Assembly (NCBI GenBank): GCA_030704615.1
Contig: CM060733.1
Span: 55,242,001 to 55,306,000 of the forward strand
DNA length: 64,000 bases
Direction: 5' to 3'
Source of the DNA: Takakia lepidozioides
Lineage: Eukaryota; Plantae; Bryophyta
Position numbers and translations under genes: made by a program. The notes under the pieces are model-generated. The model saw only the letters and a list, made by a program, of their open reading frames with translations. It ran no database searches and was not told where the DNA came from. Positions 9,441 through 49,500 of this stretch are shown in pieces. Every line of letters begins with the position of its first letter. Positions within the stretch are counted from its first letter, which is position 1.

Positions 9441-9441
9441 G

Positions 9442-9970
9442 CCTGGCAGCCCTGAAAAATGGTACAGAGGTCCACGGTGATATTGTCAAAGCTGGTATTG
9501 TATCTGATGTGATTCTGAACGTTGCCGTAGTGGACATGTATGCCAAGGTTGCAGGGTGCAACTACAAGGATACATGGCTGTTTTGATAATATGGCTGAAT
9601 GAGATGTGGTACCAGCCTAGCCCATAATTGCACTTAACTAGAGTAGGCAATGAGTGAAGACGGGGTTTGTGATGACATCGTCCAAGCTGGAATTAAACAA
9701 ATGTTGTTCTGAACTATGCCTTTGTGGACTTGTATGCCAAATTGGGGTGCATGGAGGATGATGATCCCAGGATATGCACAACAGCGGCGCGAGATGGAGG
9801 CCCTTTGGAGAGGTCTATGAGCAAGTGGTGTGGGAAGGGATACTGCAGCGCAACCACATCGCGTTTGTTACATTTGCAACATGTGTGCAAGCCTGGCAAC
9901 CCTGCAAAATAGCAAAGAGGTTCGTGGTAACATCGTCCAAGCTGGAATTGTACTAGATGTCGATCTGAAC
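9442..9970 (+). pseudogene. PLS-PPR repeat fragments related to the 29-31 kb gene
   Basis: For example GAGGTCCACGGTGATATTGTCAAAGCTGG...GTGGACATGTATGCCAAGG closely matches the L/S repeats at 29.6-30.9 kb, with indels. Confidence 0.8.
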
Positions 9971-9984
9971 TTTGATATGATGCC

Positions 9985-11020
9985 AATGTGACAACAGGAA
10001 AGTATCCAGAAACAGGTCACAGAGACGAGGAGAAGTTGTGGAATGGTGGGACAACCGAGGGAAAAAGGTTAATGCCTGTTAGATTATAGAGGGCAGACGC
10101 AATTCAACATAGGAACTAGTGTGATAAGCTGAGTTGGGTGTTTCCTAGAACAAATCTAGGCTGTCATTATCAGCTGCAAGGCAAGGAAGTATGCATGATT
10201 TGTGCAGAAGCAGTGATAGCTGAAAGAGCAGGGATAGAGTATGGGTCCAGATTCATCCAAGAGGGCCAGATTTCAAGCACATGATTACCTATGATTACCT
10301 GTGGATTTAGCTATAAGAAACCTGCATGGGTAGATGGTGAACTAGAAGCCGCAGGAGTAGCGGCACAATTGATAAAATCAAGCACTGCTAATAAAGGCAC
10401 CTTCTTCAACACATTTCACCCTGTTTTTCCCTCTTATCAGAACCGGCCCTAAATTTCAATGTCTGCAAGTTAGCTGGTTGAGTGAATCTAGTTTGGAGTG
10501 ACTTTGACATGATATTGCCAATGTGACAACATGAAAGTATCGAAAAACAGTTAACGGAGATGAGGGGAAGCTGTGGAATGAATACTTTTCTGACCCCAGT
10601 CAATGGTGGGACAACCGAGGCAAAAAGGTAAACGTCTGTTGGATTACAGAGAGTAGCAATGCAATTGAGAATAGGAACTAGTGTGGTAAGTTGAATTGGG
10701 TGTTTGCTGGAACAAATGTAGGCTGTCATTGTCAGCTGCTAACAGCAATGCAAGGATATATGCATGATCTGTGTAGAGGCATGGATAGCTGAAGGAGCAG
10801 GGATAGAGTGTGGGTCCAGATCATCCAAGAAAGCCGGATTTCAAGCTCCAGATTACCGAGATTCCCTGTGGAAGGATAGCTACAAGAAACCTGCATGGGT
10901 AGATGGTCATGGGTAGATGGTAGATAGTTTGGAGTGACTTTGACATGATACTGCCAAAGTGACAATAAAAAAATATCCATAAACAGGTAACAGTAGCAGA
11001 CGCAATTCAGCATAGGCACT
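9985..11020 (+). pseudogene. Two tandem ~570-bp units encoding intron-split OSB-type PDF motifs (degenerate)
   Basis: Exon A reads KLWNEYFSDPSQWWDNRGKK|gt (about 10568-10627). Exon B reads ag|IHPRGPDFKH...KKPAWVDG (10251 and 10820). Both units carry frameshifts. Confidence 0.8.
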
Positions 11021-14209: not shown

Positions 14210-15805
14210 TCAACGCTTCTTCCGCTTTTGAGGTCGCCCTTCGAAAGCTGCAACCGCCTCGGATGCGTTTCCCATTTCTGAGGCACGCACCCAAGATGCC
14301 TCCACATGATGATAGCCCTTCCATTTGACGAGATACTCCGTTTCTCGGTTCCTGAACCTCCTCGATTTAAGTATTGCCTCCACCTCGTACTCAGGTTCAT
14401 TTTCATGATCCAACAGCATAGGTGGCGGACGCAACACTTGATGTCGATTCGGACGCGCTTCATCTTTGAAGTAAGGCTTCAAAAGAGAGACATGGAATAC
14501 TGGGTGCACCTTGCTGTTTGCCGGCAGCTCCAATTCATACACATCCTCATTCATAACCTTCCGAATGCGAAAGGGTCCCGCATACGGAGGTACGAACTTT
14601 GGACTCACTTCCGGAGGTAGTCGGAAATTCTTGATGTTCAACCAGACCTCTGTGCCTGCCTCAAACTTCACTTCCCTCCGCTTCCGATTCGCCTGCCTTT
14701 CATACCGTTTCCTAGCTTTGGCAATGTTGTACTTTGCGAGCTTCAACAAACGCTCGCGTTCTTCCAGTACCGCCGCTACTGCCGGTTTCTCAACGTCCTG
14801 GGCGGCCCAACTTGTCGGCACCAGAGGTGCTTTTCCATAGACCAATACGAAAGGGGAAACTCCCGTTGCAGAGTGTTCTGTGTTATTATAACAGAACTCT
14901 GCCGCGTCTAAGTGTTCCATCCAGTCTGATTGGTCTGCCGACACGTAATTCCGCAAGAATTGCTTCGCTACGGAATTCACTCTTTCCGTTTGGCCGTCCG
15001 TCGTAGGTCGGAAGGCGGTTCTCATCTTTAGCCTCGTCCCCATCTTCTTCCAAAGTGTCCTCCAAAATTTACTCGTAAACTTTGGATCGCGATCCGAGAC
15101 AATATCCTTCGGGACTCCATGATGCTTTAAGACGTGGGCGAAGTAAAGTCGCCCTGTCTCCTGCGCCGTTACCGTCTCCTTGGTGGGGATGAAATGGCCC
15201 ATTTTACTGAACCTATCCACCACCACCATGATTGCATCGAATCCTTTTGACAGCGGCATAGCAGTCATGAAATCCATCGAGACGCTTTCCCAAGTCCCCT
15301 CTGGAATCGGCAAAGGTTGTAACAGCCCCGCTTGCTTTTTGTACTCACTCCGGTTTTGTTGGCATGTGGTGCATGTCTTGACATACTCCTCTGCCTCCTC
15401 CCTCAGTTTGGGCCAGAAATACTCTTTCTTCAAGAGTGCCGCAGTGCGCTTGGCTCCGCCGTGGCCCGCAAGCGGGCTATCATGGCATTCTCTCAAGAGG
15501 CTATCTCTGATCCCTCCCTTTGGCACGTAGAGACGCTTTTGCTTATACCGGAGCAGTCCATTTTGCAAGTGGAACTGCGATTTAACCCCCATCCTCAAGT
15601 CCTGCATCACGGACTTCGTCAGCTCATCCTTCCGGTAAGCCTTCCGGATCTTCCTTTGGAGCGCCGTCTCGCCCTTGTACACCAACAAGAGCTGTTGCTT
15701 TCTACTTAAAGCATCGGCCACCACGTTGTCTCGTCCCGGTTTGTACTGGATATCCACGTCGAACACTGCCAAAGTATCTTGCCACCTAAGTTGTTTTGGG
15801 GACAA
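14210..15805 (-). CDS. Retrotransposon integrase plus chromodomain (part of a disrupted pol)
   Basis: HHCC zinc finger, SMDF/SDRD/TER core, GPY/F motif and chromodomain. Confidence 0.9.
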   Translation of the reverse strand: MSPKQLRWQDTLAVFDVDIQYKPGRDNVVADALSRKQQLLLVYKGETALQRKIRKAYRKDELTKSVMQDLRMGVKSQFHLQNGLLRYKQKRLYVPKGGIRDSLLRECHDSPLAGHGGAKRTAALLKKEYFWPKLREEAEEYVKTCTTCQQNRSEYKKQAGLLQPLPIPEGTWESVSMDFMTAMPLSKGFDAIMVVVDRFSKMGHFIPTKETVTAQETGRLYFAHVLKHHGVPKDIVSDRDPKFTSKFWRTLWKKMGTRLKMRTAFRPTTDGQTERVNSVAKQFLRNYVSADQSDWMEHLDAAEFCYNNTEHSATGVSPFVLVYGKAPLVPTSWAAQDVEKPAVAAVLEERERLLKLAKYNIAKARKRYERQANRKRREVKFEAGTEVWLNIKNFRLPPEVSPKFVPPYAGPFRIRKVMNEDVYELELPANSKVHPVFHVSLLKPYFKDEARPNRHQVLRPPPMLLDHENEPEYEVEAILKSRRFRNRETEYLVKWKGYHHVEASWVRASEMGNASEAVAAFEGRPQKRKKR

Positions 15806-15811
15806 CTTGGG

Positions 15812-17191
15812 CTACGTGGCAAAATACTTCACCGTGACATTGTCCGTGAACACCTTCACTGGGTTGGAACCAACATAGTGGCGCCAAAGCTCAAGACAGT
15901 GCACCACCGCCTTCATCTCTTTTTCGTGCGTCGGCCACCGTCGCTCCACTTCATTCAGTTTCTTACTTTCGTAAGCCACTGGACGTTCATCTTGCATAAG
16001 TACACCCCCAATCACGAAGTCCGACGCATCTGTATGAATCTCAAATGGACGATTGAACTCCGGGATTTTCAAGACTGGAACTTCCGCCATCCGCTGCTTC
16101 AATTCAGCAAAAGCTTGGCCACAAAATGTGTTCCATACCCAGACTTTGGATTTACACAGAAGGTCCGACAGCGGCCCCGCGATCTTGGCGAAATTTCTCA
16201 CATACTTCCGGTAATAGGAGGCGAGTCCTAGGAAGGATCGCACTCCCGGGACCAAAGTCGGAGGCTCCCAGTCCAAGATCGCCCTCACCTTTCTGTCATC
16301 CATTTCGATCCCATCCTGTGTAATCACATGCCCCAAGAACTCCACTTTCGTGACCCCGAATTCGCATTTTGAAGCTTTGGCGTACAGCTTCCCTTCCCGC
16401 AACTTTTGGAACACCCTTTTGAGGTGCTCCAGGTGTTCCTCCTTTGTTTTCGAGTACACCAAGATGTCGTCGATGTACACGATCACAAAGTCATCCAACC
16501 ACTCCTGAAAAAGGCTGTTCATCAGCGTGCTAAAGGTCGCCGGTGCATTAGTGAGCCCAAAAGGCATCACCAAGAACTCATATGAACCATATCTTGTCCT
16601 GCACGCGGTCTTCTCCTCATCTCCTTCCGCCACCCGAATTTGATGATAGCCGGAGCGCAAGTTGATCCGGCTGAAATACTTCGCTCCTGCCAACCGGTCG
16701 AAAAGGTCGTCGATCCTTGGCAAAGGGTACCGGTTTTTAATAGTCACCTTATTCAAAGCCCTATAATCGACATACATCCGCAGCGTCCCATCCTTCTTGT
16801 CTGCGAATAGCACCGGGGCTCCGTAAGGTGACTTACTCGGCCGGATGTACCCCTTTGACATTAGATCCTTGAGCTGAGTCTTCAGCTCGACCAACTCTCT
16901 GTGGCTCAACCGGTAGGGCGCCTTGGCAGGCGGTTCCGATCCCGGTATCACCTCAATCTTGTGGTCAACTCCTCTTCGCGGTGGCAAGCCGCTTGGTAAA
17001 TCCTCCGGCATCACATCCTGGTATTTCTCCAAAATCCCCTTGATCCAATCTGGGCTCGGATCCCCATCGCCTTCTCCTTTCACTTCTCTAATGTAAAGCA
17101 AAAACTGGGACTCGTGTGCCTCCTCTACGGCCCACTCCTTTGCTGACAGAAGGTTTATTCGCCCTCCCACGGATTTGGGCGTTTCCGACAC
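15812..17191 (-). CDS. Retrotransposon RT and RNase H (part of a disrupted pol)
   Basis: [29 protein letters not shown]. The first RT aspartate appears mutated (SRINLRSG). Confidence 0.9.
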
Positions 17192-18813
17192 TCATAAAAC
17201 CTCGCCACCATTCCCACATGGCAGCGTGACTACTCTCTTGCGGCCATCTATGACCGCTCCGGATTTGCTCAAAAAGGTCATCCCCAAAATGAGATCCACT
17301 CCATCGATCTCGCAGATGGTGAAGTTCTCACGTCCCTCCCAACTCCCCAGTTGAAGAAGAACATCAAACGCCAACCTTGTCGCCAACTGAGGTTCTCCTT
17401 TGGCAGAGCGCACCTCAATAGAGGCCCCCACGTCACTTGTCGGGAGTCCCAACTTTCGCGCCGCCGCCGGCGTCATGAAGGAGTGCGACGCTCCTGTGTC
17501 CACCAACAACGACACGTTAGTTCCGGATATTATCCCATCCACGAACAATAACTGACTCCCTTTACGCAGGGCGTCAGTTTCCTGATACAACTCACAAGAA
17601 TAGTTGCCTACCTTGCAAGTCCTGGCGACCACCGCTTCCACCAAGCGACTGATGGTATCTTCCGACAGCTCCGTGGTTGCCCGAGTCATGTTCAATTGTC
17701 GAGGTTTTGTGCACTTCTTGGCCATGTGCCCGGGCTCCCCGCAATTGAAACACACTCCATCAAAGGTCGCCTTCTGTCCGCCATAAGCCGCTCCACCCGC
17801 TTTTCCTTTCGAAGCACCGGGTGCCGCCTTGACGTGTGAAGGCCCTCCCTTCGATTTCCACGTGCCATTGTCGCCGCGTGGCCTATCCCACTTCTTTTCT
17901 GGTCGGAAGGAGTCACCTTCCCGCCGGGTCTTCTTGTGGTTCAGCTCCGTATGGCCTTGTCTCTCACCCCTAGGGACATCCGAGAAACATTCAGCCCTCT
18001 AAATTGCCTCGTTCAAAGTCTTGGGTGGCTTCTCCTCCAACTTCCGCCTGGCCCATGGGGCCAGTCCCGCCACAAAGTTGAAGACCATTTCTGGTTCTGC
18101 CATGTCCGCGACTTCGAGCAACAGCACATTGAAAGCCTGGACATACCCCCGAACGTCATCTGTTTGCTTCAAATTCCTCATCTTGTCCCGGGCAAGCCAG
18201 GACGCGTTGAGGGGCACAAACTGTCTCTTCATCAATTCCTTGAACCCACTCCAGTTCAAGGTTTCCGGGCTTGGACCTCGGTCGTGAAGGCGTTTCTGCC
18301 ACCATTGTTGAGCATAGCCCCTCAAATAGGTGGGAGCCACTTCCACGCGATCCTCGTCACTCAACTTGGCCGCCCGGAAGTACTGCTCCAGCTCCAAGAG
18401 CCAGGTGTTGAGTGCCTTCCGATTTTGGACGCCCTCGAAGGTGCCGGATTCCTTAGGCTTCACCTTAAACTTTGCCTTAGTGGAAGTGGCATTAGCCGCC
18501 TTCAACACGTCTTTCAACGTCCCGCCAAACTGCGCCAACAACCCTTCCCAAAAGGCTGCCGGCATGGGAGGCATCTCTTGGTTTGTCGGAGCTCTCAAGG
18601 ATTCCTCGGGCTCCGACTCCTCAGATTCCTCCCGCTCTTGGGCGGCCTTGTTTTCGGAAACATGCATCGCTTCCTCAAACGGCCGCCTCGGTGACACGCC
18701 GCCCCCATCGAGCTCACCGGGATCATCATCTTTTGGGCCGTTCCGCTTTTGCTTCGGCTTGCCCGACCCCATGATGAGGCCAATCCCAAGGACGATCGCG
18801 TACTGAACTCTAA

Positions 18814-18825
18814 GCTCTGATACCA
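18814..18825 (-). promoter_or_regulatory. Primer-binding site (initiator tRNA-Met)
   Basis: TGGTATCAGAGC lies 2 nt inside the 5' LTR edge. Confidence 0.95.
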
Positions 18826-18827
18826 AG

Positions 18828-19556
18828 TGTCGCGCACCTCACTTCGATAAGCTCCCCTTCAAGTCATAGTTACTCGCTTTGATGCGCACGCCTGACTCCC
18901 AACCTGGCCACCCGGGCCAACTTGGAGCTTCGGCTGCTCACCGGGACATAACGGTCCCCCTTCACTTCCCTCTCGACCCTCCACCTATTTGGGACTAGGA
19001 GAATTCCCTTTGGTAGATGGCAGTCCGGAACATCTCCCCACTCTTTGGTCGCTTTCCGGCTCGCTCGCTTACTCACTAGTTATTGGTCACCAACGGGCTT
19101 GCACCGTTCTCAGCGTTACAACTCCCTATATATACTTCTGTAGCTGTCCGCGGGGGTTTCACAACCAGCCATGCCATTTTATGGCGAACCACCACGAAGA
19201 CCCTCGATTCCCGGTGGTGAGTCGCGGTGAGTCTTGGCCCACTCACCGCGGCCCCAATGGACCGTGATGAGTCCCAAGACTCCCCACGACTCCCACCTCG
19301 AGGTCTCCACCCCATGGTGAGTCCTATGCCACCCCCACTAAGTCCCGCTAAGCTACCACCACCCCTTGTGGAGCCACCCCCACCGCAACCCGGTGTGCGG
19401 GGCTCCACCTAGTGAGCGCCTCCGCCTCCTTGAGTGCCTTGGGCACTCAAGGGTGCTTCAGCCCCCCCCCCATACCTATCGCTGTCGCTGCCCCCACCAC
19501 AGGGGCAGCCCCTCATGTGTCCCGACCCCCTGCCCTCAAGGCAAAGGGCCGCGACA
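18828..19556 (-). repeat. 5' LTR of the chromovirus (729 bp)
   Basis: TG...CA ends with 7-bp inverted termini; matches 12688-13303. Confidence 0.95.
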
Positions 19557-21989: not shown

Positions 21990-24327
21990 TGTTATCAGTG
22001 CCTAAGCTACATTTGTAGAAGGCCTGATGCAAAGCATGGATGTTCTGGGAAGCGTCAACGCGCTCATGCAGGAGCCGCAGCTTAACCCGGATAGCATTAG
22101 AAGTGCGACAACTACTAACGTTCTTGAGATACTTCTTGAAAAGGATCTGACTCTCTTTCCTCAGTCCAACTACAGAACAAATTCAGGCCCTTTTCTTATC
22201 TTGCCGTTCATAGGGAATCTATCAGGATCCCAAGAAAATTGCTTGCTTGAATCAACGTCAATATGGACTCATGTGACCATTTTCTTTTATTCCAGTCACT
22301 GTTCATTGACTCAGATCGTAATAGAGATCACCCCACTCCACGATCGTTCACCCCTGTTCTTCACGAAAGCATATTCACAAGTCTTAAAGCGAACCTTTCT
22401 TGTTCCAAGCTATTCACAGGGTTTACACCATCACTCTATACAAAAGAGAAATCACAGTTCCTTCCGCTGCAAGGCATCAAAGGCCAGTGACGTCTATTCC
22501 AACATCAACCTACACTCTAAAAGCACAGCACCGGCTATAGCATCCGGTCCACCCAGCCACCACGCCGTGCTACAAATCAGCTTTTACGCGCATCCAGATC
22601 TGCTCCAGGCGCCTGTACGCCATCATCCCTTCTCCAACCATCTTGCCATCTCCACGCACACATCATTAAATCCCTAGTCCTGGATCTCTTCATGCACGCG
22701 AGACTGCTCCATTTTACCTGCAACTGTCAGTTCGGCGATATTCTAGCAGTCTCTTGTTATTCCAAACTGGTTGACAGGTCGATCTTCGTTCCTAGCACCT
22801 AACAAATTCCCCCTCCCAAAGACAGGTCATTGTCCTCAATGACAGAAAATGAGGGGTAACTCAATGTCAATTCATTTTCCTCCTCCCAAGTAGCTTCTGT
22901 CTCTGGGTAATGCAACCACTTAATCAAATGTTCTTTCCAAGAACGGTTGCGTAGTGATGGGTCTGACATATACCTCCGGAGAAGGCTGACATGGAAAGTT
23001 TTATGGATCTTCCATGTTGGAGGTAGATCCAACTCATAGGCCACTGTGCCATGGCGTTCCAGGATTTTAAACGGGCCACAAAACCTTGGTGACAACTTAT
23101 AGCACTTGCCCAGTGTTAGATTGCTTCTTTTAGGTGTAACTTTCAAAAACACCATATCACCAATGGCAAATTCACGAAAAGTCTTGTGTTTATCAGCAAA
23201 GAACTTGGTCCGTTCTTGTGCAGCCTACATACTACGCTTCACCAGATCTAGGACAGAGTGGATCTCTTTGATTCTGTCATTCACACTCTGCACATTTGAT
23301 GGTGGCGTAATAAGCGAAGCAGGAGCCAAGCAATCTCGTCCGTATAAAGCTTCAAATGGGCTCATGCCAATGGCACTATGGAAATGCTTGTTATAAGCAA
23401 ATTCCACCATATACAGATATTGTTCCCAAGAGGACTGTCTTTCACCAACGTACATCCTCAACATATCTTCTATTGTACGGTTGGTCCTTTCTGTTTGAGC
23501 ATCTGTTTCTGGATGAAAGGCCGTACTCAGTTTCACCTTGGTTCCCAATTTCTTGAACAAGTCAATCCAAAAATGACTTATAAACTTTGAGTCCCTGTCA
23601 CAAATAATCTCCCGAGGCAGACCATGGATCCTGAATATCTCTTTCATGTACAAGGATGCAACATTAGATGCCGTAGCACTCATCCTTGTAGGTATCAAGT
23701 GGGTTATCTTAGACAGCCTATCTACAACCACCATGATACTGTCATGGCCATTTCTGGTCCTGGGCAATGCCACAATGAAATCCATGCTAATGGATTCCCA
23801 ATTCCACCCGGGAACAGATAAAGGTTGTAATAATCCAAGAGGTCTGACTCTCTCTGACTTCAAAACCTGACATGGGAAACATTTCTGCACATACTCTTTA
23901 ATTTCTCTCTTCATACCTGGCCAAAAATAGTGCTTCTGTATTGACCAATAGGTTCTCTGAAAGCCCGGGTGTCCAAAGATTGGAATATTGTGACTGTCAT
24001 GAATAATCCGCAATCTCAAGTCTGGAATCAGGGGAACACACAGCCGACCATCATAAAATAACACCCCATCTCTCAAGAGGTATGGCCGGTACTTCTCTTT
24101 CTCAATAGAAGTCACGAGACAAACTCTTGAATGGCTCTTTGAAGAATTCATCGACCTCATACTGACCTTTAATGTCTTGAATTATAGTGCTACTGACGCA
24201 TGAGACTACATTAGCTTGTAATGGTCTCCTAGAAAGTGCATCAGCAATCACATTCTCTCTCCCCTTGATATACTTTAGGTCATAATGGAATTGCTGAAGC
24301 AGTTCTGACCACCTAATCTGCCATCTT
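21990..24327 (-). mobile_element. Second Ty3/gypsy: integrase and chromodomain half, PPT and 3' LTR, inverted relative to its RT half
   Basis: QIRWSELLQQF...ADALSR, integrase SMDF/CDRD/TER, PRFCGPF, HLIKW..YP..EATWE, PPT GGGAGGGGG (about 22809-22817), LTR TGTTA...TAACA 22804-21990. Confidence 0.88.
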
Positions 24328-25621
24328 GCCGCCGTTGCCTCAAGCCATGAATGATGGTCAGCTGATGGCTGAACCCGAAAAGATTCTAGATTGTAAGATC
24401 ATTGTTTGTAAGAGTGGAGATTGCGCCATGTAAGGCGCGTCAATATACACAACGCAATTCTCGGGTAGTTCTTTACGGACCAATAAACACTGTTTTTGAT
24501 ATCCGTGCTACTGATCGAGCTCAGATTCGGGCTCTTCTCGAAGGACTCGGAGGTGACGATAAATGAATTCTTTTGAGCAGCTTGTAATGGACACATGATT
24601 TACATTCTGTGTGGGTTCAGGAACATCATACATGTTGATGTCGAGAAATCACTCTGTGAAAGATATGAATATAACATTTTTCGAATAGCTGGCCTTGATC
24701 TCTAATTGTTATTGGAGTGTGTGAACATTTTGTGTAAGCGCTTAGTGGAGGATCAGATCAAAGTATTGATCTCAGAATCAGATTTGCGAAGATAATCATC
24801 CAGGAAGGCTAGATAACGTCATAGTCATCCACATTAGACTAGATGATAAGCATCCATGAAGCCAGGAAAAATGTCATAGAAGCCAGACAAGTGTTGTAGT
24901 CGTCAACACTGTATTCGTTCCCTTCGCTCCCTGCGGCACGAGCTTGGGCCATGCAACCGATGACCTTGGTTGAACGGCTTGTGCTTGGAGGTGCATGAAG
25001 GCGATCGCAGAAGATCGGGGTGGGAGGTCTTTTTGGACCACGATGTTGCGGTGTGGATTGCGTAAGCAGAGTCCGTCTTCGATAGCATCCAAAAGGCTGC
25101 TAATGTACCTCTCTTGGCCTAGCTTGAGAAGATCCTTGGATCTCCTGGCCTGGACTTGCAAAGGAAAGCCCCACTATTGGCGTAATCCTTCCACAATGGT
25201 AGTTACCCAAATTCTGCTCTCCCTCACTCCTGCTCATTTGGTTGTGTCCCATGTGTTTTTGTGTCTCGTATTCGTTGTAGGAGTGCCTGTTGGGCTTATC
25301 AGCAAAAAGCTTAACAACCTTGCTGGGAGGCTGAAGAAATGGATGATAAGGGAGGAAGTAAAATTTTGCTGTTTAATGCTGCTGATGTTGTTAGATAGAC
25401 CTGACGCAGAAAGGGTCGGTAAGGATGCAGGGTGCCAAGCTGATGAGCAAGTATGGAGGCGAAGTGCCCAAGGTTATTAAGGAGGTCGTCCCGGAGAACA
25501 AGGAGGTGACTTGCGGCTCTTATGCATGCCAGATGTTTTTCTAGATTTGCTTACGATTGAGCGCATAGGGTGGTCTTATTGGCAGGCTCTAATATGTCTG
25601 GACTGAGCCAACGCCGTCCAG

Positions 25622-25672
25622 GCGTGCGCGCGCGCGCACACACACACACACACTCTCTCTCTCTCTCTCTCT
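25622..25672. repeat. Compound (GC)n(AC)n(TC)n microsatellite
   Basis: Read directly from the sequence. Confidence 0.9.
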
Positions 25673-25917
25673 CCGAGCCTAAAGCCCTGGTCCTGTTGGG
25701 GTCTAATTGCTGGGAAACTCACGCCCAGCAGATTGATGCTTGTGTGAAGGGCTTTCTAGAGGATATCTGGAAAGCCCGAACTAATTGTTTATATCAAGGT
25801 AAGTCCCACTACCAGGGTGAGCTCCCCACACAAAGGTACTGTTTATTTCCTCTTGTTCCGCCCAAACTGGGCGTGGGGTCTATGGCCATAAGGCTACGGC
25901 AAACAACGTCTTATTAG
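25673..25917 (+). mobile_element. Possible 3' remnant of a non-LTR retroelement
   Basis: LLGSNCW...VKGFLEDIWKAR resembles the extreme C-terminus of LINE ORF2; weak evidence. Confidence 0.3.
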
Positions 25918-25931
25918 TACTCTCATCCTAC

Positions 25932-27899
25932 TTGTTTTCATCCCTTTTGGAGGTTGCAGGTCTCATCAATAGATTTCGCACTCTGCAGGGCATTGGAGAA
26001 CAGGTTACCTTTACTAGCCTCTTGAAGAGGCCTTCCATAAATAGGATTGCTCTACTCCCACTTTGCAGGCTTGGGACACAGCCACGTAGGGACTTCTCTA
26101 GTGAACGAGATGCTTTCATACTGAAAGCATTGCAGTCTATAGCCGACAGGAACAAAAGTGACCCCCATTATGTCAACCATAAACTCTACAGGCTCTTACT
26201 TGAAGCAGACCTGATCAGACTGGCGGACGAACGTCTCAACCGGATCCCTGGGCAAAGTATACTGGGGCATGATGGTGAATCATGGATACAGGAATTTGTT
26301 CAGGAACTTCAGTCTGAACAGTTTCAGTTTCAACCAGGTAGGAGACTCTTCATCCCCAAAAAGGCAGGAGACTCCGAAGGTCCACTTTCAGTGCCACCCT
26401 TTAGAGATCAGATTGTCCTGGAGGCAATGAGGATAATACTAGAGTCAATATTTGAACCAGTCTTCCTAGACTCCTCTCATGGCTCCCGACCATTCCGATC
26501 TTGCCACTCTGCCCTCCAGTCAGTTAGAATGGGGCTGCAAGATCACGTTTGGGCTTTTGCAGTGAATGTGAGTAAGTATTGTGACTCAATCGATCACCAT
26601 ATTCTGGTGGGCCTGTTGGAGAAAAAGGTTGATGATAAAAGGTTCATACGACTGGTATGGAAGGCACTAAGAGCTGGATACAGCAAGACTACCGAAAAAA
26701 GTTGGACCTTTAATAGCATCTTGCAGGCCACCCAACAAGGAAACAGCCTGTCCCCGTTGTTGGTGAACATCTATTTTCACGCATTGGACTGCTGGGTTCA
26801 TGACCACAGAGAAACTTTTCAGAGAGAAAAACTGAAGTCTGTTAATCCTCCATGGTTAAACCTGACAACCAGCGGGAGAGACTATGACTGGAAAGCGAAC
26901 GAAGCCAGAAAAAAGGAGCTGAGGGAGCAAGGAGGTCAAATCCCCAGCAGATTGGGAAATGATTCAGGATTTTACCGGATGTTCTACGTCCGATTTCAGG
27001 ACAACATCCTGTTAACCTTCATAGCCAAGAAAGAGGAAGTTGTCAACGTCCGAAAAGATTTGGAAGACTTCCTCAAAGATCACCTGAAAATTGATTTGAG
27101 GAGGGGAATCCCTCGAGTAATTCACCTTAGAGAGAGGCATGTTCTCTTCCTAGGGACTAAGGTAAGTGTTGTGAAAGCATCAGGCCAAGCTCGCCTCAAT
27201 GCTCCAGTGGATAAGATTATAGGTGAATTGGCTGATCTCAGCATAGTCTCACTTGGAGGGTTTCGACCTCGCCCCATCACTTTCTTGACTCAGTGCTCCC
27301 ACAACAATATTATCAAGTACTACAACTGGATTATGCAAGGGGTTTGCAATTACTACTCGTTCGTTGACAATTTCAACCGCCTAACGAATTATCTGAGACT
27401 TGCTATCAGGAGCAGCTGTGTCCGAACTCTAACGGTGAAACTCAAGCGTCGAAGAGCTGCAAGGACCTACAAAGATTTTGGGGTTGAGTGTGCGGCAAAA
27501 TACAGAGTGCCTGTTAAAGACGGCCAACCTGTCTATGACAAACTCTCAGAGGAAGAAAGAGCAATACTGAGGAACTGTCTGCGAATAGCAAATGCCTTAC
27601 GTGGAGAATGGGACACATTGGGACGGGTGGAAAAAGGGCTTCTGCAGAGATTCTATATCCCAGAAGTAATATGTGAGCCTAATGGGGACACGAATCTGGA
27701 ATTTAGAGGTGACTTTCTATTGTTCTGCAGTAATAGGAGCCAAAACAAGGACACTGTACAAGCCTCGAGGAAACTTGGACTTCTCCCCCCCTTACCCAAC
27801 CCATTGGATTTTAAAGAAAGCTTGGTGCCACCACCAAGACCACGCCTTTTCCCGAAGGCTAAGCAGCAGATGTATACTGGTACAAAAACAACAGCGTAG
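25932..27899 (+). CDS. Nuclear-encoded group II intron maturase-like protein (RT plus domain X, catalytically degenerate), probably organelle-targeted; true start likely in upstream exon(s)
   Basis: RRLFIPK, PLSVPPFRDQIVLEAMRIILESIFEPVF..SSHGSRP.RSCHSAL, IDH..L, QQGNSLSPLL.NIY..LD, YVRFQDN (the YADD position), FLG, and domain X IIKYYN...G..NYYSF.DN...SC..TL..K. N-terminal RRDFSS resembles a presequence cleavage site. Candidate acceptor ttgcag at 25954-25959. Confidence 0.88.
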   Translation: MFSSLLEVAGLINRFRTLQGIGEQVTFTSLLKRPSINRIALLPLCRLGTQPRRDFSSERDAFILKALQSIADRNKSDPHYVNHKLYRLLLEADLIRLADERLNRIPGQSILGHDGESWIQEFVQELQSEQFQFQPGRRLFIPKKAGDSEGPLSVPPFRDQIVLEAMRIILESIFEPVFLDSSHGSRPFRSCHSALQSVRMGLQDHVWAFAVNVSKYCDSIDHHILVGLLEKKVDDKRFIRLVWKALRAGYSKTTEKSWTFNSILQATQQGNSLSPLLVNIYFHALDCWVHDHRETFQREKLKSVNPPWLNLTTSGRDYDWKANEARKKELREQGGQIPSRLGNDSGFYRMFYVRFQDNILLTFIAKKEEVVNVRKDLEDFLKDHLKIDLRRGIPRVIHLRERHVLFLGTKVSVVKASGQARLNAPVDKIIGELADLSIVSLGGFRPRPITFLTQCSHNNIIKYYNWIMQGVCNYYSFVDNFNRLTNYLRLAIRSSCVRTLTVKLKRRRAARTYKDFGVECAAKYRVPVKDGQPVYDKLSEEERAILRNCLRIANALRGEWDTLGRVEKGLLQRFYIPEVICEPNGDTNLEFRGDFLLFCSNRSQNKDTVQASRKLGLLPPLPNPLDFKESLVPPPRPRLFPKAKQQMYTGTKTTA

Positions 27900-28588
27900 G
27901 CATCAACAGCGAACGAGGTAGACCATCTACGTGACATGCTTGTATGTTTCTCATTGTGTAGAGTCCAATGGAGCTCGCAGTGACTTGCATTGTTGTTGTT
28001 GAAAGCTACACATGCACTCCTCAAAGGAACTTGTCAAAGTGTTGATGCTCTCGGAGTTTCCAGGCACAAAGGTCTACCGTGGAGCATGGAGGGGCGCTGG
28101 CATGAGGTTCTTAAAGATCCATCACACAATGGTGTGACAACGCAATGGCAAGGTGTGACTTTCTTAATGTACGATGTGAAGTTTGTCTGTTGTGCAAAAG
28201 TGGGCTCTATCTGTCAGTATCATGATTTGTTCTATTTCCTGGTCTTTACAAGGTGCTTGGGAGGGTCAGCTTGGTCTTAGGAGCCAGTTTTTAATTTATG
28301 GCTGCTCAGCTGCTTCATGGCGCACCAATCCAAGATCACCCAACTACAGACACAAGCAGCGCACAATAGAGGTCGTTTGGGTTGATGGTTGGTTGAATCC
28401 TCCTTGGGTGAAAGAAAAGTTAGCTGCTTTCATGACACAACATCAAGGGTGATGTGGTGAGGGCACCTTCTTCTTCAACACATTTCAGCTTATCAGGATA
28501 GTCCCTAATTTTTCATGTTGAATTCTGCAAGTTAGCTTGTCGGGTGGGGCATCTATGTTGGATTGGTGATTTTGATGTGTTACTGCCA

Positions 28589-31500
28589 ATGGCAACAGGC
28601 AAATATCCGGAAACAGAAAATAGAAACGAGGAGAAACTTTGGAAGGAGTATTTTTTGGAGCCCAGTCAATGGGGGGACAATTCAGGCAAAAAGGTAAATT
28701 CCTGTTAAATTACAGAGAGGAGCAGCCAACAGGTGCATCGCAAAGCTTTCTTGGAATTTGTCATCCTCTCTCTCTCTCTCCCCCGAACGCATTTCTAGAG
28801 TCTTGGGAGCAATTCAGCATAGGAACTAGTGTGTGATACGTAGGGTTGGGGTGTTTGCTAGAAAAATGTGAGGGTGTCATTGGTAGCTGCTAGTCGCCAG
28901 GGGACGATCTATGTATGATTGGTGCTGAGGCAGGGAGAGCTGAAGGAGCAGGGGTGGAGTGTGGGTCCAGATTCATCCGAGAGGGCCGGATTTCAAGCAC
29001 AAGAGTAGCCATGATTTCCTGTGGATTGATAGCTACAAGAAACCTGCATGGGTAGATGGTCAACTGGAAGCAGCAGCAGCGATACGGTTGATAAAATCAG
29101 GCACCTCCACCATGTCCACAGCTTCCAAAAGGGAACCAAGAGAGGGAGTCCACAATACCTCTTCTGGGCGTAAGAGGACGCTATGTGAGGCGGGGCAACT
29201 GAAAGAGGCTCTACAGATTTTGCACCAAGGAGGCATTTCAGCAGAATCAGATACTTATGTCTGTCTCTTGCATAAGTGTATCAAGATGAAAGGTCTGGAG
29301 GCCGGAAAGCAGGTGCACGCTCACATTATACAAAGTGGATTCAAGCCAAATGTTTTCCTACACAACAACCTTGTCAACATGTATGTTAAGTGCGGGAGCA
29401 TCGTGGATGCACAGCAAGTGTTCGACAAAATGCCTGAACGAGATTTGATCACTTGGAATATACTGATGGCAGGATTTACCAAGCATGGGTGTGGTAAGAA
29501 TGCCTGGGAGACATACGAGCATATGATGTGGGAAGGGGTGAAGCCCAACCACATCACTTTTGTTTGCGTTTGCAATGCATGTGCAAGCCTGGCAGACCTG
29601 GAAAAGGGCAAAGAGGTCCATGGTGACATCGTCAAAGCTGGAATTGTACCAGATGTCATTCTGAACACTGCCCTCGTGGACATGTATGCCAAATGCGGCA
29701 GCATTGAAGATGCAAAGGGAGTGTTTGACAATATGGCTGAACGAAATGTGGTGTCCTGGAGTGCTATGACTGCAGGATATGTGCAGCATGGGTTTGGGAT
29801 GGAGGCTTTGGAAACCTACGAGCAAATGATGCGGGAAGGGGTGAAGCCCAACCACATCACGTTTGTTTGTGTTTGCAATGCGTGTGCAAGCCTGGCAGAC
29901 CTAGAAAAGGGTAAAGAGGTCCACGATGACATCGTCAAAGCTGGAATTGTACCAGACGTCATTCTGAACACTGCTCTCGTGGACATGTATGCGAAATGCA
30001 GCAGCATCAAAGTTGCAAAGGGAGTGTTTGACAATATGGCAAAACGAGATGTGGTGTCCTGGAATGCTATGATTGCAGGATATGCACAGCATGGCTGTGG
30101 GATGGAGGCTTTGGAGACCTATGAGCAAATGATGCGGGAAGGGGTGAAGCCAGACCAGGGCACGTTTGTTGGCATTTGCAATGCATGCGCAAGCCTGGCA
30201 GCACTGGAAAAGGGCAAAGAGGTCCATGGTGATATCATCAAAGCTGGAATTGTACCAGATGTCATTCTTAACACTGCCCTGGTGGACATGTATGCGAAAG
30301 GCGGGAGCATCAAGGATGCAAAGGTAGTGTTTGACATTATGGCGGAACGAAACGTGGTTTCGTGGAACGCAATGATCGCAGGATATGCCCAGCATGGGTG
30401 CGGGATGGAGGCTTTGGAGACTTATAAGCAAATGATGCAGGAAGGGGTGAAGCCGGACCTGGTCACGTTCGGTTGCGTTTGCAATGCGTGTGCAAGCCTG
30501 GCAGCCCTGGAAAAGGGCAAAGAGGTCCATGGTGACCTCATCAAAGCTGGAATTGCACCAGATGTCATTCTGAACAATACCCTGGTGGACATGTATGCCA
30601 AAGGCGGGAGTATCGCAGATGCAAAGGGAGTGTTTGACAATATGGCTGAACGAAATGTGGTGTCCTGGACCGCGATGATTGCAGGATATGCCCAGCATGG
30701 GCGTGGGATGGAGGCTTTGAAGACCTATGAGCAAATGATGCAGGAAGGGGTGAAACCGGACCGGGTCACGTTTGGTTGCGTTTGTAATGCATGTGCAAGC
30801 CTGGCAGCGCTGGAAAAGGGTAAAGAGGTCCATGGTGACATTATCAAAGCTGGAATTGTACCAGATGTCATTCTGAACAATACCCTCATAGACATGTATG
30901 CCAAGTGTGGGAGCATTGAGGATGCTAACGAAGTGTTCGGCAATATGGCTGAACGAGATTTGGTGTCGTGGAACACGATGATGGCAGGATATTCCCAGCA
31001 TGGTTGTGATATGGAGGCCCTGCAACTATTCGAAGAAATGCAAGTGGAAGGCTTGAAGCTGGACAACATCACTTTTATATGTGTTCTGTCTGCATGTCGC
31101 CATGCTGGCCTAGTCGATGAGGGTAGATACTACTTTGACTCCCTGCGTAAAGATCATGGTATCACTCCAGCGGTGGAGCACTTTGCTTGCATGGTGGATC
31201 TTCTTGGCCGTGCAGGGCGATTGGATGAGGCAGAGGACTTTATTAACAATTTGCCAATGAAACCAGATGCTGCGGTGTGGAGGGCCTTGCTTGGTGCCTG
31301 CAGAATTCATTGCAATGTGGAGATGGCTGAGCGCGCAGCAACGTCAATTCTCAAGTGGGATGAACAGGACCCCGCGACTTATGTGTTGCTATCCAACATC
31401 TATGCTGCAGCTGGTAGGTGGGATGATACTGCGAAGGTGAGAAAACTGATGAAGGTCAGAGGGCTTAGAAAGGAGCCAGGTCGGTGTTGTATTGAGGTCA

Positions 31501-31883
31501 GCAACAGGGTGCACACCTTTGTTGTAGATGACAAATTGCATCCAAAAATTGAGGAAATCCATGCTGAGCTGAGAAGATTGTATGGGCAGATGAAGGAGGC
31601 TGGGTATGTGCTTGACATGCGCTTTGTATTGCACGATGTGGGGGAGGAGCAAAAGGAATTTTCTCTTTGCCACCACAGTGAGAAGCTGGCCATTGCTTTT
31701 GGGCTTATCAGCACGACCCGTGGGACGCCTCTCCGTGTCATCAAGAATCTTCGCATGTGTGGTGACTGCCACACCGCCACCAAGTTCATCTCAAAGATTG
31801 TTGGCCGAGCAATTGTTGTACGGGATGCCAACCGCTTTCACCACTTTGAAGATGGGGTTTGTTCTTGTGGTGAATACTGGTAA
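28589..31883 (+). CDS. PLS-E-DYW pentatricopeptide RNA-editing factor with an N-terminal OSB-type PDF motif; exons about 28589/28599-28693 and 28971-31883
   Basis: Six L-S-P triplets, then L2-S2-E1-E2, PG box (KEPG), HSEKLA, KNLRMCGDCH and terminal EYW. A phase-0 GT-AG intron (28694-28970) joins LWKEYFLEPSQWGDNSGKK to IHPRGPDFKHK...LWID...PAWV. The 5' end is uncertain. Confidence 0.9.
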
Positions 31884-33709
31884 AATGATGCTTTTCTGGA
31901 TAGGTGGGAGTGTCTCGCTTCATTCATTGATGTGCGTAGCTACTACTTCATCCTCTAGTTCAGCATCTACAGCCTGACCCTTTAATATGTTGTAGGATCT
32001 GCAGCCTCTTCCCTGTTCCCACCAAGACAAGGCCTTTAGTATGGCCACAACATGAGCGCCCAGAACCAGCCATCATATGCACATTGTCATCCTCTGGCTC
32101 AAGGGAAGGGAAGAAGATAGTCAATATACAGGGAGAAAAAATGAACAACAACTTGTGGTGTCACTCAACCCCGAAGGGCTACTCCTCCCAATGGGAAGGT
32201 GGACACCTTTATGACATCAAACACATGTGTGTTTTTGAACCACATCCTTTGTCTTTGCATGCCCTAGACATCAGGTGGAGACTGGAGACATTGAATTTGT
32301 AAATTCCAGCTTCTGAGTTAACATTTTCTTAAAAAAAACTTAATGAAGAAATAGTTTAGGGTATATTCCTTGCTATACTTTGACCCTGAATGGCTGCCAC
32401 CTTCCGGTGGGAAGGTGGACCTCTTTATGACCTATATTGCTGAATAGTTAGTTTGTGTCAACCATTAAACCAAAGCTCAGGCAAGAGAAGACCTTTGCAA
32501 AATGGAGACCTTTAACAGTGAAACTCAGCCTGGAAAGTTTTAGTGGTGTCAATTGAGCAGCCCAAACCAGCCGGAGAGAGGCCTGGCCTTGCAAACAAAG
32601 AAACCTAGCTCTTTAGAACGTCTCCAGAAAGCTTTTCATGCTCATGTAAAGTTGAGGGTTAAAGGAATCAAATCTTCTTTCACAATAGAGGCCAAAGCTG
32701 TACGAAAGGTTGGTGATAGAGGACTGACAAGCAAAGTGCAGCAAGATTTCTGTAGCACAGCAGTATGTGGAAAAAACTTGGCAGCATACAGTGTACATGT
32801 CAAAATAAGTAAGGTTGCAAATGTATACACTGATGAACAATCAATGGAGACGGTCAATAGAATGCAACTTTAATGTGAGGTGACCACACTTGAAATAAAG
32901 GGCTTCAAGTGGACATAGGCTGGCATTCCAACCCATATATTAGCTGCCAAATGATGGCTTTCCAAACTACATGGTACATTGAAGTATGTGTGAAACATTA
33001 TTGGCTAAGTTAAGGGGATGAGCTTTTCTACGACAGAACTTCACCAGCACAGTGAAGCCTACCCTAAGCTGATCTATACCCCAATGGTGACTACTCGGGA
33101 GCCTTTCTCCTTCTCCCCAAACTCCATGAATTGTATTGCAAACCTACTGAATCAACCCTTTCTCAATCTCCCTTTCTCTGATGGGCGAAAACCTATAAAG
33201 TATGGCACTGCCTAACATGCTATGCACCTGTATGGGCTCTTACAGAAATAAAAATGCACTGGTGCACGAGGACAAAGGTCCCCAATCTTGCTCACAAGAA
33301 CGATGCCCTGATGGGAGTGGAGAACTCGTTACCTCCAGCTGCTGTATTTGTCCCAAAGATCCATAAGATCTTTTGTATGAATCCTCCTGCAGATGATTCA
33401 GGTCACTGAAAAGTGACTTCTCTATAAGACAATCAAATTGAACGCAATTGAACCCCATTAAACGTTGGAGTAGTGATCAGATAGCCTAGTCCTGCCAAGC
33501 TTGGACCAGCACCCCCTCACCATGTTGAGTGAAGACAGACAGCTAAGTGGCCAAGTGCAGTTGGAAGATCGAAGTTGGCGGAAGGAATGAAATGAAACCC
33601 CAAAAATGTGCTGTATTTCCACCTGTCCCAGATCTCACCAAACTGCTCAGCCTCGTAGCTCTCATTGTGTGAGCCAAAGGAACAGGGAAACAATCAGAGT
33701 AAGAAAAAG

Positions 33710-34272: not shown

Positions 34273-34850
34273 CAGAGGGGGGTGCTGCAAGCATCTTGTT
34301 CCATGACACCAAATCTCGTTTAGCCATAGTGTTGAAAACTCCCTCCGCATCCTCAATGCTCCCACATTTGGCATACATTCCACCAGGGTAGTGTTCACAA
34401 TGACATCTGGTACAATTCCAGCTTTGACGATGTCATCATGGACCTCTTTCCCCTTATCCAGGGCTCCTCCCAGGCCTGCACACGCATTGCAAACACAAAT
34501 GAACGTGATGTGGTTGGGCTTCACCCCTTCGCGCATCATTTGCTCACCACATCAAGGTGCCCTCACCACATTGTCCTTGTAAATTCAGTATGCATCTCAG
34601 GGCCGAGCCTGATGAGGGCAAAACAGGCTGAAATAGGTCGAAGAAGAAGGTGCCCTCACCACATTGGCCTTGACCTTGTGGCACGACCTATGGAGGATTT
34701 GACCACCCATGCTTGGTAAATCCTGCCAACATTATATTCCACGTGATCAAAGATCGTTGAGGCATTCTGTTGAACACTTGGTGAGCATCAATGATGCTCC
34801 CGCACTTAACATACATGTTGACAAGGGTGTTGAGTAGAAAAACATTTGGC
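34273..34850 (-). pseudogene. Inverted PLS-PPR fragments related to the 29-31 kb gene
   Basis: MMREGVKPNHITF...[16 protein letters not shown], plus a copy of the first S-P repeat (NVFLLNTLVNMYVKCGSI), with frameshifts. Confidence 0.85.
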
Positions 34851-46568: not shown

Positions 46569-49500
46569 TTGCGACGCCGGGGGGTAAGACCAGCTGAGGT
46601 GTTCAGGCTGGCAGCTACACTTTGTGAGAGTGGGGAGGTTACTTCATCTTCTGCGGAGATAGTGGGAGGTGTAGTGCCAGAGGGATCCTCGGATTTGAGG
46701 GTCAAGACTGCCACGGCGGCGCCATGGCAAGCTGTAGCTGCCAGGTTGATGGAGCTGCCAGCTAGGCCAGCCATTGAGCGTGCCATGGTTACACCTGGAG
46801 TTGTCACGTTAGACAACCAGGATGACATTTTCTGTTTGAGTGGACCGGCAGGCAAGAGGTACCGGCCACTGCGGGTCTTGTTGGACTCGGGAGCTCAGCC
46901 ATTGATGCTGGGCAGAGCTACTATTACAGGCTTGGGCATCACGGAGGCGGATATGGAGCCTTGTCATTTCCAGATACAGACGTCTCTAGGAGGATCGAAG
47001 CAGGCTCGGGGCATGACACGGCGTGAGGTGGCTATCAGACTACGGCCGGATCATCCTACAAATGGCTCAGTGATGCAAGCCAAGGCCATTGTGACAGACG
47101 CGGTCTCATTCGATGTCCTGGTTGGTGGGGCAGTGTTGTACCCCATGGGCTTCACCTTGGATTTTTGGGAGGGGTCAGCTTCATATAGGCTTGCATGGCA
47201 GTCAGGGGAGGGCCGGGGCGTGTGCAGCTCCCTGTGACTTTCATAGGAAGAGTTGCGGTTGCCCAGCGAGGCAAGATGCCGACACTAGCAGCATTCACAG
47301 CGGCAGTGAGTTGGCCTGGAGAGTTGCTTGAGGGCAACGCTCATTTAGAGGATGACATACCTCCAGCAGAACAGGATGACATGTATGATATGGCGGAGTT
47401 GCCTGCCATGGTTGCTCAGACTCCATTGTGGGGCACGAGCAAGGATTTGCATCGGGTTGCTGATCGATGGGTGCAACAAGCCTGGGTAGAGGCTTTTGTA
47501 CCGTCAGGAGAGGAAGAGAGTGCGGGGATTGCACCAGGACCACCTCAGTTGTCTCCATTGGACACCACACCTATTGTGTGGCAGTATCCGGATGAAGGCA
47601 TTTGTCTTCTGGACTTGTTTGGCGGGATCAGCACCGGATTGGCTGCTGTGTTACAGGCAGGTGTACGAGTTTGGCGTTACCTGTATGTGGAGAGGGATAA
47701 GACTGCATGACGCGTTTCACTTTGCCATGTTGCTCAGTTGGTGCAGCGGTACCCTAAGTTGTTGCCGGTGTCTGCAGTTCATGGATATCAGCAGGCCTTG
47801 CCAGTAGACATTTCGTTGCTGGGGGCGCAGGATTTGGAGCGGGTTGGCTCCATTGATCTGGTAGTGGCAGGTTGGCCTTGCCAAGGGCATTCATCAGCCG
47901 GGCATGGCAATGGATTGCGAGACTCGAGGTCGGGTCTGTTTTGGGAGATGGTGCAGGTTTTGCGCCACTTGCAGCTTCATCAAGCTGTATCTCCAGCATA
48001 CATCTTGGAAAATGTGCCACTGATGGGCGATTCTCGGGCCAGGGTGATGGCCAGTGTGCATCAAGTCCAGTTGTGGCTTGGGTCAACAGTGTTGCTAGAT
48101 GCAGCTACAGTAGGGTCACGGGCTCATCGTCCACGGCTATGGTGGACTAACTTGATGCCACCCGCACTGCTCAAGCGTGCATTTGATGGGGTGCAGCGGC
48201 CAGCACATCTCACAGTGGATAGCATTCTGGACACAGGGAGGCAGTCTCAACGTGTGAGACACGATAACCGTTCGCCTTTGGCAGTGGTCAACAAGGTGGG
48301 TCAACCACGAGCAGCATTACCTACACTGCTCAGTTTCCCAGGATCGCATGCTTTTCGGGATAGTAGACCTGGCCTCATGTGGGATGCTCAGTTGCAGCAG
48401 TTAGTGGAGCCTAATGCTGACGAGCGTGAGCGGGCAATGGGTTTTACCACTGGTACCACGGCGGTGTCGTCTCTTTCTGAGGCATCACGTCGTCAGGTGT
48501 TGGGGCAAGCAATGGATCTCAATTGCTTGACCTGGATTATCAGCTTGGCTATGGCTGAGCAACGCAGAGTGCGGAGTACACTTCCTTCGATGGTCTCTCT
48601 GCCTACTGAGACGGTACAGGTAGTGAGTGGAGGCGAGCATGTAAGGACCACGGGGTGCAGGCATCCATGGCACACGGGGGAGGTGCTCGAGGTTCAGAGG
48701 GAGTTGGCAACCAAGGTGGCGGTGATAGATGAGGTTGGGGATTTTTCTCGGGTGGAGGAAGTCCTTGAGGATGAGATGATGGGGCAGGATGAGGCCTTGT
48801 CACTGACTGAGCAGGTAGGGAGTACTGCTCAAGAGGTTGCAACATAGCAACCACTAGACGCGTCCTCTACCTCTAAGCCCACTGGACTTAAGGTTGCAGT
48901 TACGGAGGACAATTGGGAGCCTGACATTGGACCCATTGTCACCGGAGGAGAGAGACAACGTATACGGCGGTTCCTGAGGGCTTACAGGAACTGCTTTGCC
49001 TTCAATTTGAAGGACTTGGGAGCACTGAAGGGTCAAGAGATCCATATTGAGTTGGCCACTGACACGCCAATCTTTCGGAGACCCTATAGATACAGTGACA
49101 TGGAGAGGTCTTTGATTCAGATGAGGACTCAAGATCTCTAGGAGGCAGGTTTGGTGGAGCTCTCTGGTGGAGAGTATGCTTCAGCCACAGTGATGCCAGC
49201 CAAGAAGGATGTCTATGGCAATTGGACGGAGAGACGTATGTGCGGTGATTACCGGCCTGTAAATCGTCAGACCGAGTCCGATAAGTATGCCATGCCAACA
49301 CCAGAGGAGATCTTTGATGCCATCAGGCATGCTAAGGTCTTTAGCACTTTGGATTTACGATCCGGATATCACCAATTGCCAATCAAGGAGGCGGACAAGC
49401 AGAAGACGGCATTCTGGGGGATCAATGAGCACGGCAAGGATTGCCTATATCAGTGGCGGTTCTTACCATTTGGGCTTAAGAATGCTCAGAGAGTCATGGA

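Follow-up and report, generated by a model that had tools for sequence, protein, structure and literature searches.

In Arabidopsis, readthrough RNAs arise in which the 3' region of one gene is spliced into the 5' region of the next, so that one RNA carries two open reading frames (ORFs) (Kurihara et al. 2022, PMC9768141). Such loci are described as enriched in genes for organelle proteins and as showing features of nonsense-mediated decay (NMD). Here we describe a comparable locus in a 64,000-nucleotide stretch of Takakia lepidozioides DNA, hereafter called the window (assembly GCA_030704615.1, contig CM060733.1, forward strand, positions 55,242,001 to 55,306,000; coordinates below are counted from its first letter). 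The RNA of a conserved nuclear maturase gene is spliced past the maturase stop codon into an intact frame that encodes a PDF motif, a PPR array and a DYW domain. On balance, we favour the view that this is a two-ORF transcript and that translation of the second product, a predicted editing factor, starts at a separate ATG on shorter RNAs. The demonstrated part of this reading comprises six splice junctions, the frames, the intact ORFs and the orthology of the maturase.

The junction expected of intergenic-splicing readthrough is present as 27917>28064, in one RNA contig (record 7) of one study. In Arabidopsis, both genes usually have mRNAs of their own (PMC9768141), whereas no separate maturase 3' end was seen here. 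In addition, the two window ORFs share sequence in different frames, and most of the first ORF is lost when an alternative acceptor is used.

The maturase is closest to nuclear maturases of mosses (Sphagnum fallax BDL97_15G085900 and Physcomitrium XP_024378982), with 53% and 48% identity over >90% of its length. It shares with them the X domain, the tail, the end point and a layout of one or more short 5' exons followed by one long exon. In contrast to these genes, it is spliced to a PPR gene and keeps more LtrA-like reverse transcriptase (RT) motifs. Several nuclear maturases are described for Physcomitrium (PMC10012718); XP_024378982 does not occur in the supplement text searched and differs from the mat-nuc1 accession.

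The second frame resembles PLS-class PPR-DYW:PG editing factors in its P-L-S triplets, its E1, E2 and E+ motifs and a DYW domain with HxE and CxxC, but it differs from them in its N-terminal PDF motif and in a start codon that lies inside the coding sequence of another gene. A PDF motif is known from OSB proteins, where it spans about 50 amino acids, has a Pro-Asp-Phe signature, is present in one to three copies and binds single-stranded DNA (ssDNA) (PMC6963530, PMC4166229, PMC13393729). Compared by description, the motif seen here agrees in size, signature and copy number, although the window protein has no OB fold and its motif is N-terminal, ahead of PPR-DYW, rather than C-terminal. The nearest full layout, PDF-linker-PDF-PPR, is found in hypothetical proteins of Diphasiastrum complanatum (e.g. 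the O6H91_05G046900 cluster), whose best member is 57% identical in the PPR-DYW part. In one of the proteins compared, P0116, the first PDF motif is preceded by a long N-terminal extension particular to that protein, and maturase sequence is present in none of 97.

Spliced RNA from the locus

The window consists of plant nuclear DNA with abundant Ty3-type and CACTA-type elements, and the locus has long terminal repeat (LTR) and CACTA-type neighbours. Two long ORFs lie on one strand, at 25821-27899 (RT and domain X) and 28944-31883 (PPR array, E and DYW); a profile search places PDF-type halves at 28321-28410, 28637-28693 and 28971-29054. The initial annotation had proposed that these same-strand modules may be spliced together into a single chimeric protein. 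The modules are real, and splicing does link them in one locus.

Two runs, X1 and X2, match the stretch; their records do not label them as RNA, and X1 is read as RNA on the strength of its splice joints. Its contigs, placed on 24850-29260 at 98% likeness, hold six GT-AG joints among the pieces listed: 25198>25431, 25505>25989, 25505>27410, 27917>28064, 28152>28599 and 28693>28971. The last three stand together in one 297-nucleotide contig, record 7, which begins at 27825 within the last codons of the maturase ORF, includes the maturase stop and runs into the PPR-DYW frame. Depths in bins across the skipped introns match the prediction from exon pieces in 6/6 bins (observed/expected 0.76/0.7, 28.8/29.3, 11.2/10.7, 11.5/12.0, 24.2/24.2 and 0/0), which indicates that X1 represents spliced RNA. 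This evidence consists of short contigs from one run of one study, and contigs drop rare variants.

Unspliced maturase 3' untranslated region (UTR) was not seen in X1, where spliced pieces explain the cover at the maturase 3' end and in intron 3, and a separate maturase 3' end was likewise not seen in this run. None of seven types of poly(A)-like hexamer, a weak signal in plants, is present in 27897-28600. X2 covers the PPR 3' UTR exactly and the maturase not at all, a blank that is uninformative because the depth of its 3' UTR contig is only 8.9, compared with 55 in X1.

The donor used (GT at 27918) sits 18 nucleotides past the maturase stop, so this splice does not yield a fusion protein. 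The reading frame of the downstream exons differs from that of the maturase, and none of the six joints fuses the maturase and PPR frames. Thus, a splicing-editing fusion protein, as initially proposed, does not hold on present evidence, and two separate proteins, both predicted to be organellar, are the likely products. A suggested join of 27879 to 28006 is frame-compatible on paper, but its donor at 27880 (score 1.5) and acceptor at 28005 (-0.7) are in none of the six joints. For a second suggested join, 28152 to 28310, the frame is kept on paper and the donor at 28153 is indeed used, but the acceptor at 28309 (2.1) is again in none of the joints. These values are rough consensus scores, and minor use of unseen sites may be missed by contigs. 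Other details were borne out, namely a degenerate PDF first half in 28065-28151 (matched by 5/95 N-termini at E<0.01), a TGA at 28450, and the failure to find a junction from the 28309 exon to 28599. The last is explained by the TGA, by an inferred GC donor and by the skipping of 28310-28462, with the RNA using 28152>28599 instead. The joint 28693>28971 is an extra junction that had been missed.

Two other candidate explanations were rejected. An assembly frameshift concealing a fusion is contradicted by X1 pieces over 27408-27917, which have 0 gaps, and a whole group II intron or nuclear mitochondrial DNA segment (numt) by a search of Rfam, which gave 0 matches at E<=1 in 24000-33000.

Table 1. 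Coordinates of the exons, frames and other features of the locus within the window.
Feature	Coordinates	Strand	Details
Exon 1 (5' end of RNA cover)	24953-25198	+	ATG 24995, second in-frame ATG 25043; X1 record 1, joint 25198>25431
Exon 2	25431-25505	+	Phase-0 donor with two acceptors: 25505>25989 (depth 11.8) and 25505>27410 (depth 13.4)
Dispersed repeat in intron 2	25726-25920		In many unrelated RNA contigs; summed depth 6,000-13,000 at 90% likeness
Main maturase exon	25989-27899	+	RT, X and moss-type tail; FQDN replaces YADD; stop 27897-27899
Exon 3, short form (isoform B)	27410-27917	+	RT domain skipped; joint 25505>27410
First coding stretch of PDF-PPR-DYW frame	27682-27917	+	+1 to maturase, overlaps last 72 maturase codons; donor GT 27918
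Exon 4	28064-28152	+	PDF motif 1, first half, degenerate; ATG 28086 as a possible other start; record 7
Skipped exon	28310-28462	+	PDF motif 1, second half, with an in-frame stop (TGA 28450); ancestral GC donor inferred at 28463
Exon 5	28599-28693	+	Linker and first half of PDF motif 2
Exon 6, coding part	28971-31883	+	PDF motif 2, second half; PLS-type PPR array, E1/E2/E+, DYW ending EYW; ATG 29112
3' UTR cover	31884-32336	+	Exact in both runs; X1 31844-32220, X2 31844-32336

The two frames and their predicted products

Splicing to acceptor 25989 (isoform A) places the two 5' exons in frame with the maturase and gives 729 amino acids from ATG 24995 to the stop at 27897-27899. With acceptor 27410 (isoform B), the frame from ATG 24995 ends at 27487 after 118 amino acids, and a frame from ATG 25453 gives a 180-amino-acid C-terminal piece of the maturase. 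Matches to RVT_1 (34.6 bits, cut-off 29.6), Intron_maturas2 (77.7 bits; both Pfam) and LtrA (E 5e-57) define the maturase. The protein is RT-dead, because residues needed by a retromobile RT are absent: YADD is replaced by FQDN, and the first catalytic Asp (LtrA GDIKG) by Asn. The gene lies in a nuclear context, with spliceosomal GT-AG introns and without group II intron RNA. The exon 1 N-terminus is basic, acid-poor and amphipathic, as in moss orthologues, carries a net charge of +6/+7 over its first 40 amino acids and is likely an organellar presequence. The initial annotation had suggested that segments within 24995-25505 supply a targeting peptide; they do form the maturase N-terminus, spliced in frame, while the targeting role itself is only likely. 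The isoform A product is likely a group II intron splicing cofactor. One X1 contig carries C>T at 27679 (Pro to Leu in the PNGD motif, 3 nucleotides before ATG 27682), probably an allele.

Among 72 maturase matches, the best are from Sphagnum (53%) and Physcomitrium (48%), with further moss-type proteins. Eight moss-type orthologues end 7-11 residues past a PPPRPRL-like motif, and the window protein ends 16 residues past it. A quick tree of 33 rows (the window protein, its top 30 matches and two named others) places it as sister to Sphagnum and other moss-type proteins with support 99, and the Ostreobium and Bryopsis mitochondrial maturases come next. These findings suggest that the maturase descended vertically, as an early branch on the moss side. 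The moss-type nuclear clade as a whole is nearest to these green algal mitochondrial maturases (Ostreobium, Bryopsis), and a tail past domain X is common to both. A search with domain X plus the tail, at any length, gave 368 proteins, 150 of them among the matches listed. One protein of the comparison with algal maturases, P0214, starts with what looks like cox1 exon sequence. The dispersed repeat in intron 2 has unlike flanks and heterogeneous loose ends in RNA contigs, several hairpins (fold z -2.3) and a strong donor at 25799, and it has no Rfam match and no second copy within the window.

When the PPR frame is traced back through exons 6, 5 and 4, it enters the +1 frame of the maturase tail, which is open from ATG 27682. 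This ATG is formed by an Asn-Gly codon pair, is the most upstream start of the frame and opens a basic leader; the ORF from this point has 1110 amino acids, and later starts lie at 28086 (1024 amino acids) and 29112 (923 amino acids). Isoform B shifts ATG 27682 from position 2015 to position 594 of the covered RNA and reduces the upstream ATGs from 30 to 11. The features of a PLS-class PPR-DYW:PG editing factor are present, with P-L-S triplets of 303 nucleotides each, E1/E2/E+ and a DYW domain whose HSE (HxE) and CGDC (CxxC) are intact. The PG box reads PGRCCIEV. The dN/dS values are 0.15-0.45 in 10/10 pairs of five PPR triplets, and there are 0 stops in 979 codons. Many close paralogues of the frame are found in RNA (1,399 X1 records at 99%+).

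PDF motif 1 is dead, with a degenerate exon 4 and a second-half exon that is stopped and skipped. That second half (28310-28462) is matched by 87/95 N-termini at E<0.01, is absent from the spliced contig and has its TGA where a decayed window copy reads CAA. The AG/GCAC context of the inferred GC donor at 28463 recurs at four other window copies, and a GC donor behind the second PDF half seems to be a feature of the PDF-PPR family. PDF motif 2, which is split by intron 5, scores 68 bits when joined, by a profile built from Diphasiastrum; one X1 contig carries G>A at 28628, probably an allele. A DNA-level likeness between PDF units 1 and 2 was not supported (scores of 37 and 37, against shuffle maxima of 39 and 60).

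Of 74 candidates, a single protein, from Diphasiastrum complanatum, is matched by the N-terminal 95 residues of the PPR ORF; its PPRs are preceded by two PDF-type motifs. A search with the PDF region of Diphasiastrum matched 88/200 candidates, all of them from Diphasiastrum and all with PPR Pfam hits. One PDF copy was counted in 59 of these, two in 23 and three in 6, although the counts are partly circular, the profile having been built from 70 motifs of the same 88 proteins. A DYW-like terminus is present in 25/88, and the PDF1-linker-PDF2 layout of the window gene matches that of the Diphasiastrum proteins. The motif, a 47-position profile with PDFKHK, fits the published description of the OSB motif and may resemble the OSB consensus. 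In the window gene, no Pfam match to the OB/SSB family was found; none of the short PDF or 5' exon pieces was assigned to a Pfam family, and ESM Atlas gave no usable match for the PDF region. Decayed PDF/PPR copies are present at three further sites in the window (9441-10960, 34285-34850 on the minus strand, and 53873-55110) as tandem PDF intron-exon units, with 2-3 units, and as PPR fragments.

No description of PDF-PPR or maturase-PPR fusions, and none of moss bicistronic genes, was found in the literature searched, with subscription papers outside its scope. The text of PMC13386178 has 0 occurrences of OSB or PDF, and that of PMC13393729 has 0 of PPR. The PDF-PPR-DYW family is apparently undescribed.

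Proposed origin and expression of the probable two-ORF unit

We hypothesize that a 5'-truncated duplicate of an expanded PDF-PPR-DYW family, without a targeting exon of its own, landed ~100-160 nucleotides behind the maturase stop, and that recruitment of a donor in the maturase 3' UTR captured the maturase transcript. PDF motif 1 would then have decayed, with an altered first half and a TGA in the second, and would now be skipped with the frame kept. Isoform A would produce the RT-dead maturase. Translation of the editing factor would begin at a separate ATG, most likely that at 27682, on shorter RNAs that might be isoform B or come from an internal start site. Its PPR tract would pick an organellar RNA site, predicted by the PPR code to read about UYnAAnGUnAUnYGnUU upstream of an edited C, at which the DYW domain deaminates C to U, and the PDF motif may keep the factor near single-stranded organellar nucleic acid. 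A further proposal, which we consider doubtful, is that this is an obligate nuclear bicistronic gene in which splicing and editing factors overlap in two frames and the alternative acceptor switches the output, and that the PDF-PPR-DYW class edits at the nucleoid co-transcriptionally through an OSB-type ssDNA-binding motif.

Several observations weigh against the favoured reading. The junctions depend on short contigs from a single run of one study, no contig spans the whole locus (record 7 starts only at 27825), and 26245-26468 is without any piece among the X1 pieces listed. The second ORF is preceded by 11-30 upstream ATGs. Of 20,000 synonymous shuffles, 47-54% leave the +1 frame open, with only 4 codons at risk, and in L001 and L003, two Sphagnum-type loci, this frame holds two stops; its openness is compatible with chance, and selection on the overlapping frame was rejected on the basis of the shuffles. 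The leader from 27682 has the lowest hydrophobic moment of five candidate starts (0.25), and the dN/dS signal may predate the landing. Second ORFs are rarely translated in 7/8 of the Arabidopsis RNAs made by intergenic splicing, which are NMD targets (PMC9768141). Here, junctions 107 and 202 nucleotides past the maturase stop would make isoform A an NMD target too. The main tension is that isoform A would be such a target yet is the only maturase RNA seen, while the PPR frame is intact across three junctions.

Two further points concern Sphagnum. For exons 1 and 2, tblastn at E<=1 gave no match to the Sphagnum-type loci, and decayed PLS-type PPR pieces lie 2.4-4.7 kb behind the Sphagnum-type maturase on the same strand, which could mean an older linkage. 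These pieces are present in 3/4 loci (L001 14673-16480, L003 14203-16159 and L004 14202-16062; the fourth ends too early), but the four represent one orthologous locus, and the comparison covers these loci rather than the whole genome. In the fragments no PDF match was found, and their sequence lies no nearer to the window PPR than to the Diphasiastrum PPR.

A monocistronic PDF-PPR-DYW mRNA could instead start from an internal promoter in the maturase coding region, upstream of 27825, and overlap the maturase 3' end, with readthrough playing no part. This would remove the problem of the upstream ATGs. It would also be consistent with contig depth, which is 7.9 over the RT part and 37.7 in record 7, although depth cannot rank parts, and with the finding that most second genes of Arabidopsis readthrough loci have their own start sites (202/271; PMC9768141). 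However, the 25505>27410 junction (13.4) matches the depth step at 27408, there is no TATA-like word in 27200-27700 (a weak sign), and the maturase RNA is still left without a 3' end of its own. We regard an internal promoter as the sole source of the second mRNA as rather unlikely.

It is improbable that the PPR-DYW frame is a silent passenger, a young copy carried untranslated as a long maturase 3' UTR. The many upstream ATGs, the abundance of close paralogues in RNA, the decay of other copies in the window and the absence of a convincing presequence on the PPR frame would all suit such a passenger. In contrast, although PDF motif 1 has decayed, the spliced path holds one frame over three junctions and 1110 codons, and the catalytic motifs are intact.

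The initial annotation also raised the reverse history, in which a maturase was inserted into an existing PDF-PPR gene and took its 5' exons. This is compatible with the RNA structure and with the unmatched 5' exons noted above; moreover, the 5' intron in Sphagnum lies ~12 codons from that in the window, and the strong phase-1 donor at 25799 would suit the PDF first-half acceptor. That donor, however, is within the dispersed repeat and in none of the joints listed. The donors of exons 1 and 2 are of phase 0 and do not suit the PDF first-half acceptors, which require phase 1 or 2; the paralogue cover of these two exons is 7.6-19, against 1,415 for the PDF1 exon bin; and they match 0/88 PDF-PPR N-termini, although presequences diverge fast. 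The maturase orthologues branch like the moss tree, and the PDF-PPR family is the mobile partner. We consider insertion of the maturase to have a low probability and favour the landing of a PPR duplicate behind it, because a conserved maturase stands beside a mobile family and its 5' exons are of the wrong phase and without family-level paralogue cover. The retained introns point to a DNA-level copy rather than a retrocopy. The expansion of PPR genes in early land plants is attributed to dispersed duplication (PMC13386178).

A true maturase-PDF-PPR-DYW fusion as a sizeable isoform is very unlikely. In its favour, all parts appear from the joints to share one pre-mRNA, and the maturase ORF contains 15 donor-like sites, among them a strong one at 27162, whose phase fits one of the three used acceptors. 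A single cryptic donor would be enough for a fusion, since 27880 spliced to the used acceptor 28599 (27879>28599) would join the frames. However, X1 records 3 and 7 read unspliced through 27162 and 27880, stop readthrough would reach 28064 out of frame, and PPR or PDF sequence is present in 0/262 proteins from the maturase searches and maturase sequence in 0/97 PDF-PPR proteins.

Neighbouring elements and implications

Elsewhere in the window, a Ty3-type element on the minus strand (14210-18838) encodes gag, protease, RT, RNase H, integrase and a chromodomain and is interrupted by stops. An ORF for a C-5 cytosine DNA methylase (47711-48847) lies between the protease-like and RT/RNase H ORFs of a retroelement. 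The segment 32850-33300 matches contigs of 1.5-1.7 kb in both runs at ~95%, from a transcribed relative elsewhere.

The locus provides a concrete case in which expanding PPR-DYW copies may gain expression by capturing the transcript of a neighbour, here that of a conserved organellar splicing factor. A shared transcript would tie a splicing factor and an editing factor to one promoter. A lycophyte has dozens of proteins with the PDF-PPR(-DYW) architecture, and the maturase tree suggests that a moss-side lineage has it as well. This family makes testable the long-standing question of whether editing factors are tethered to organellar nucleoids.

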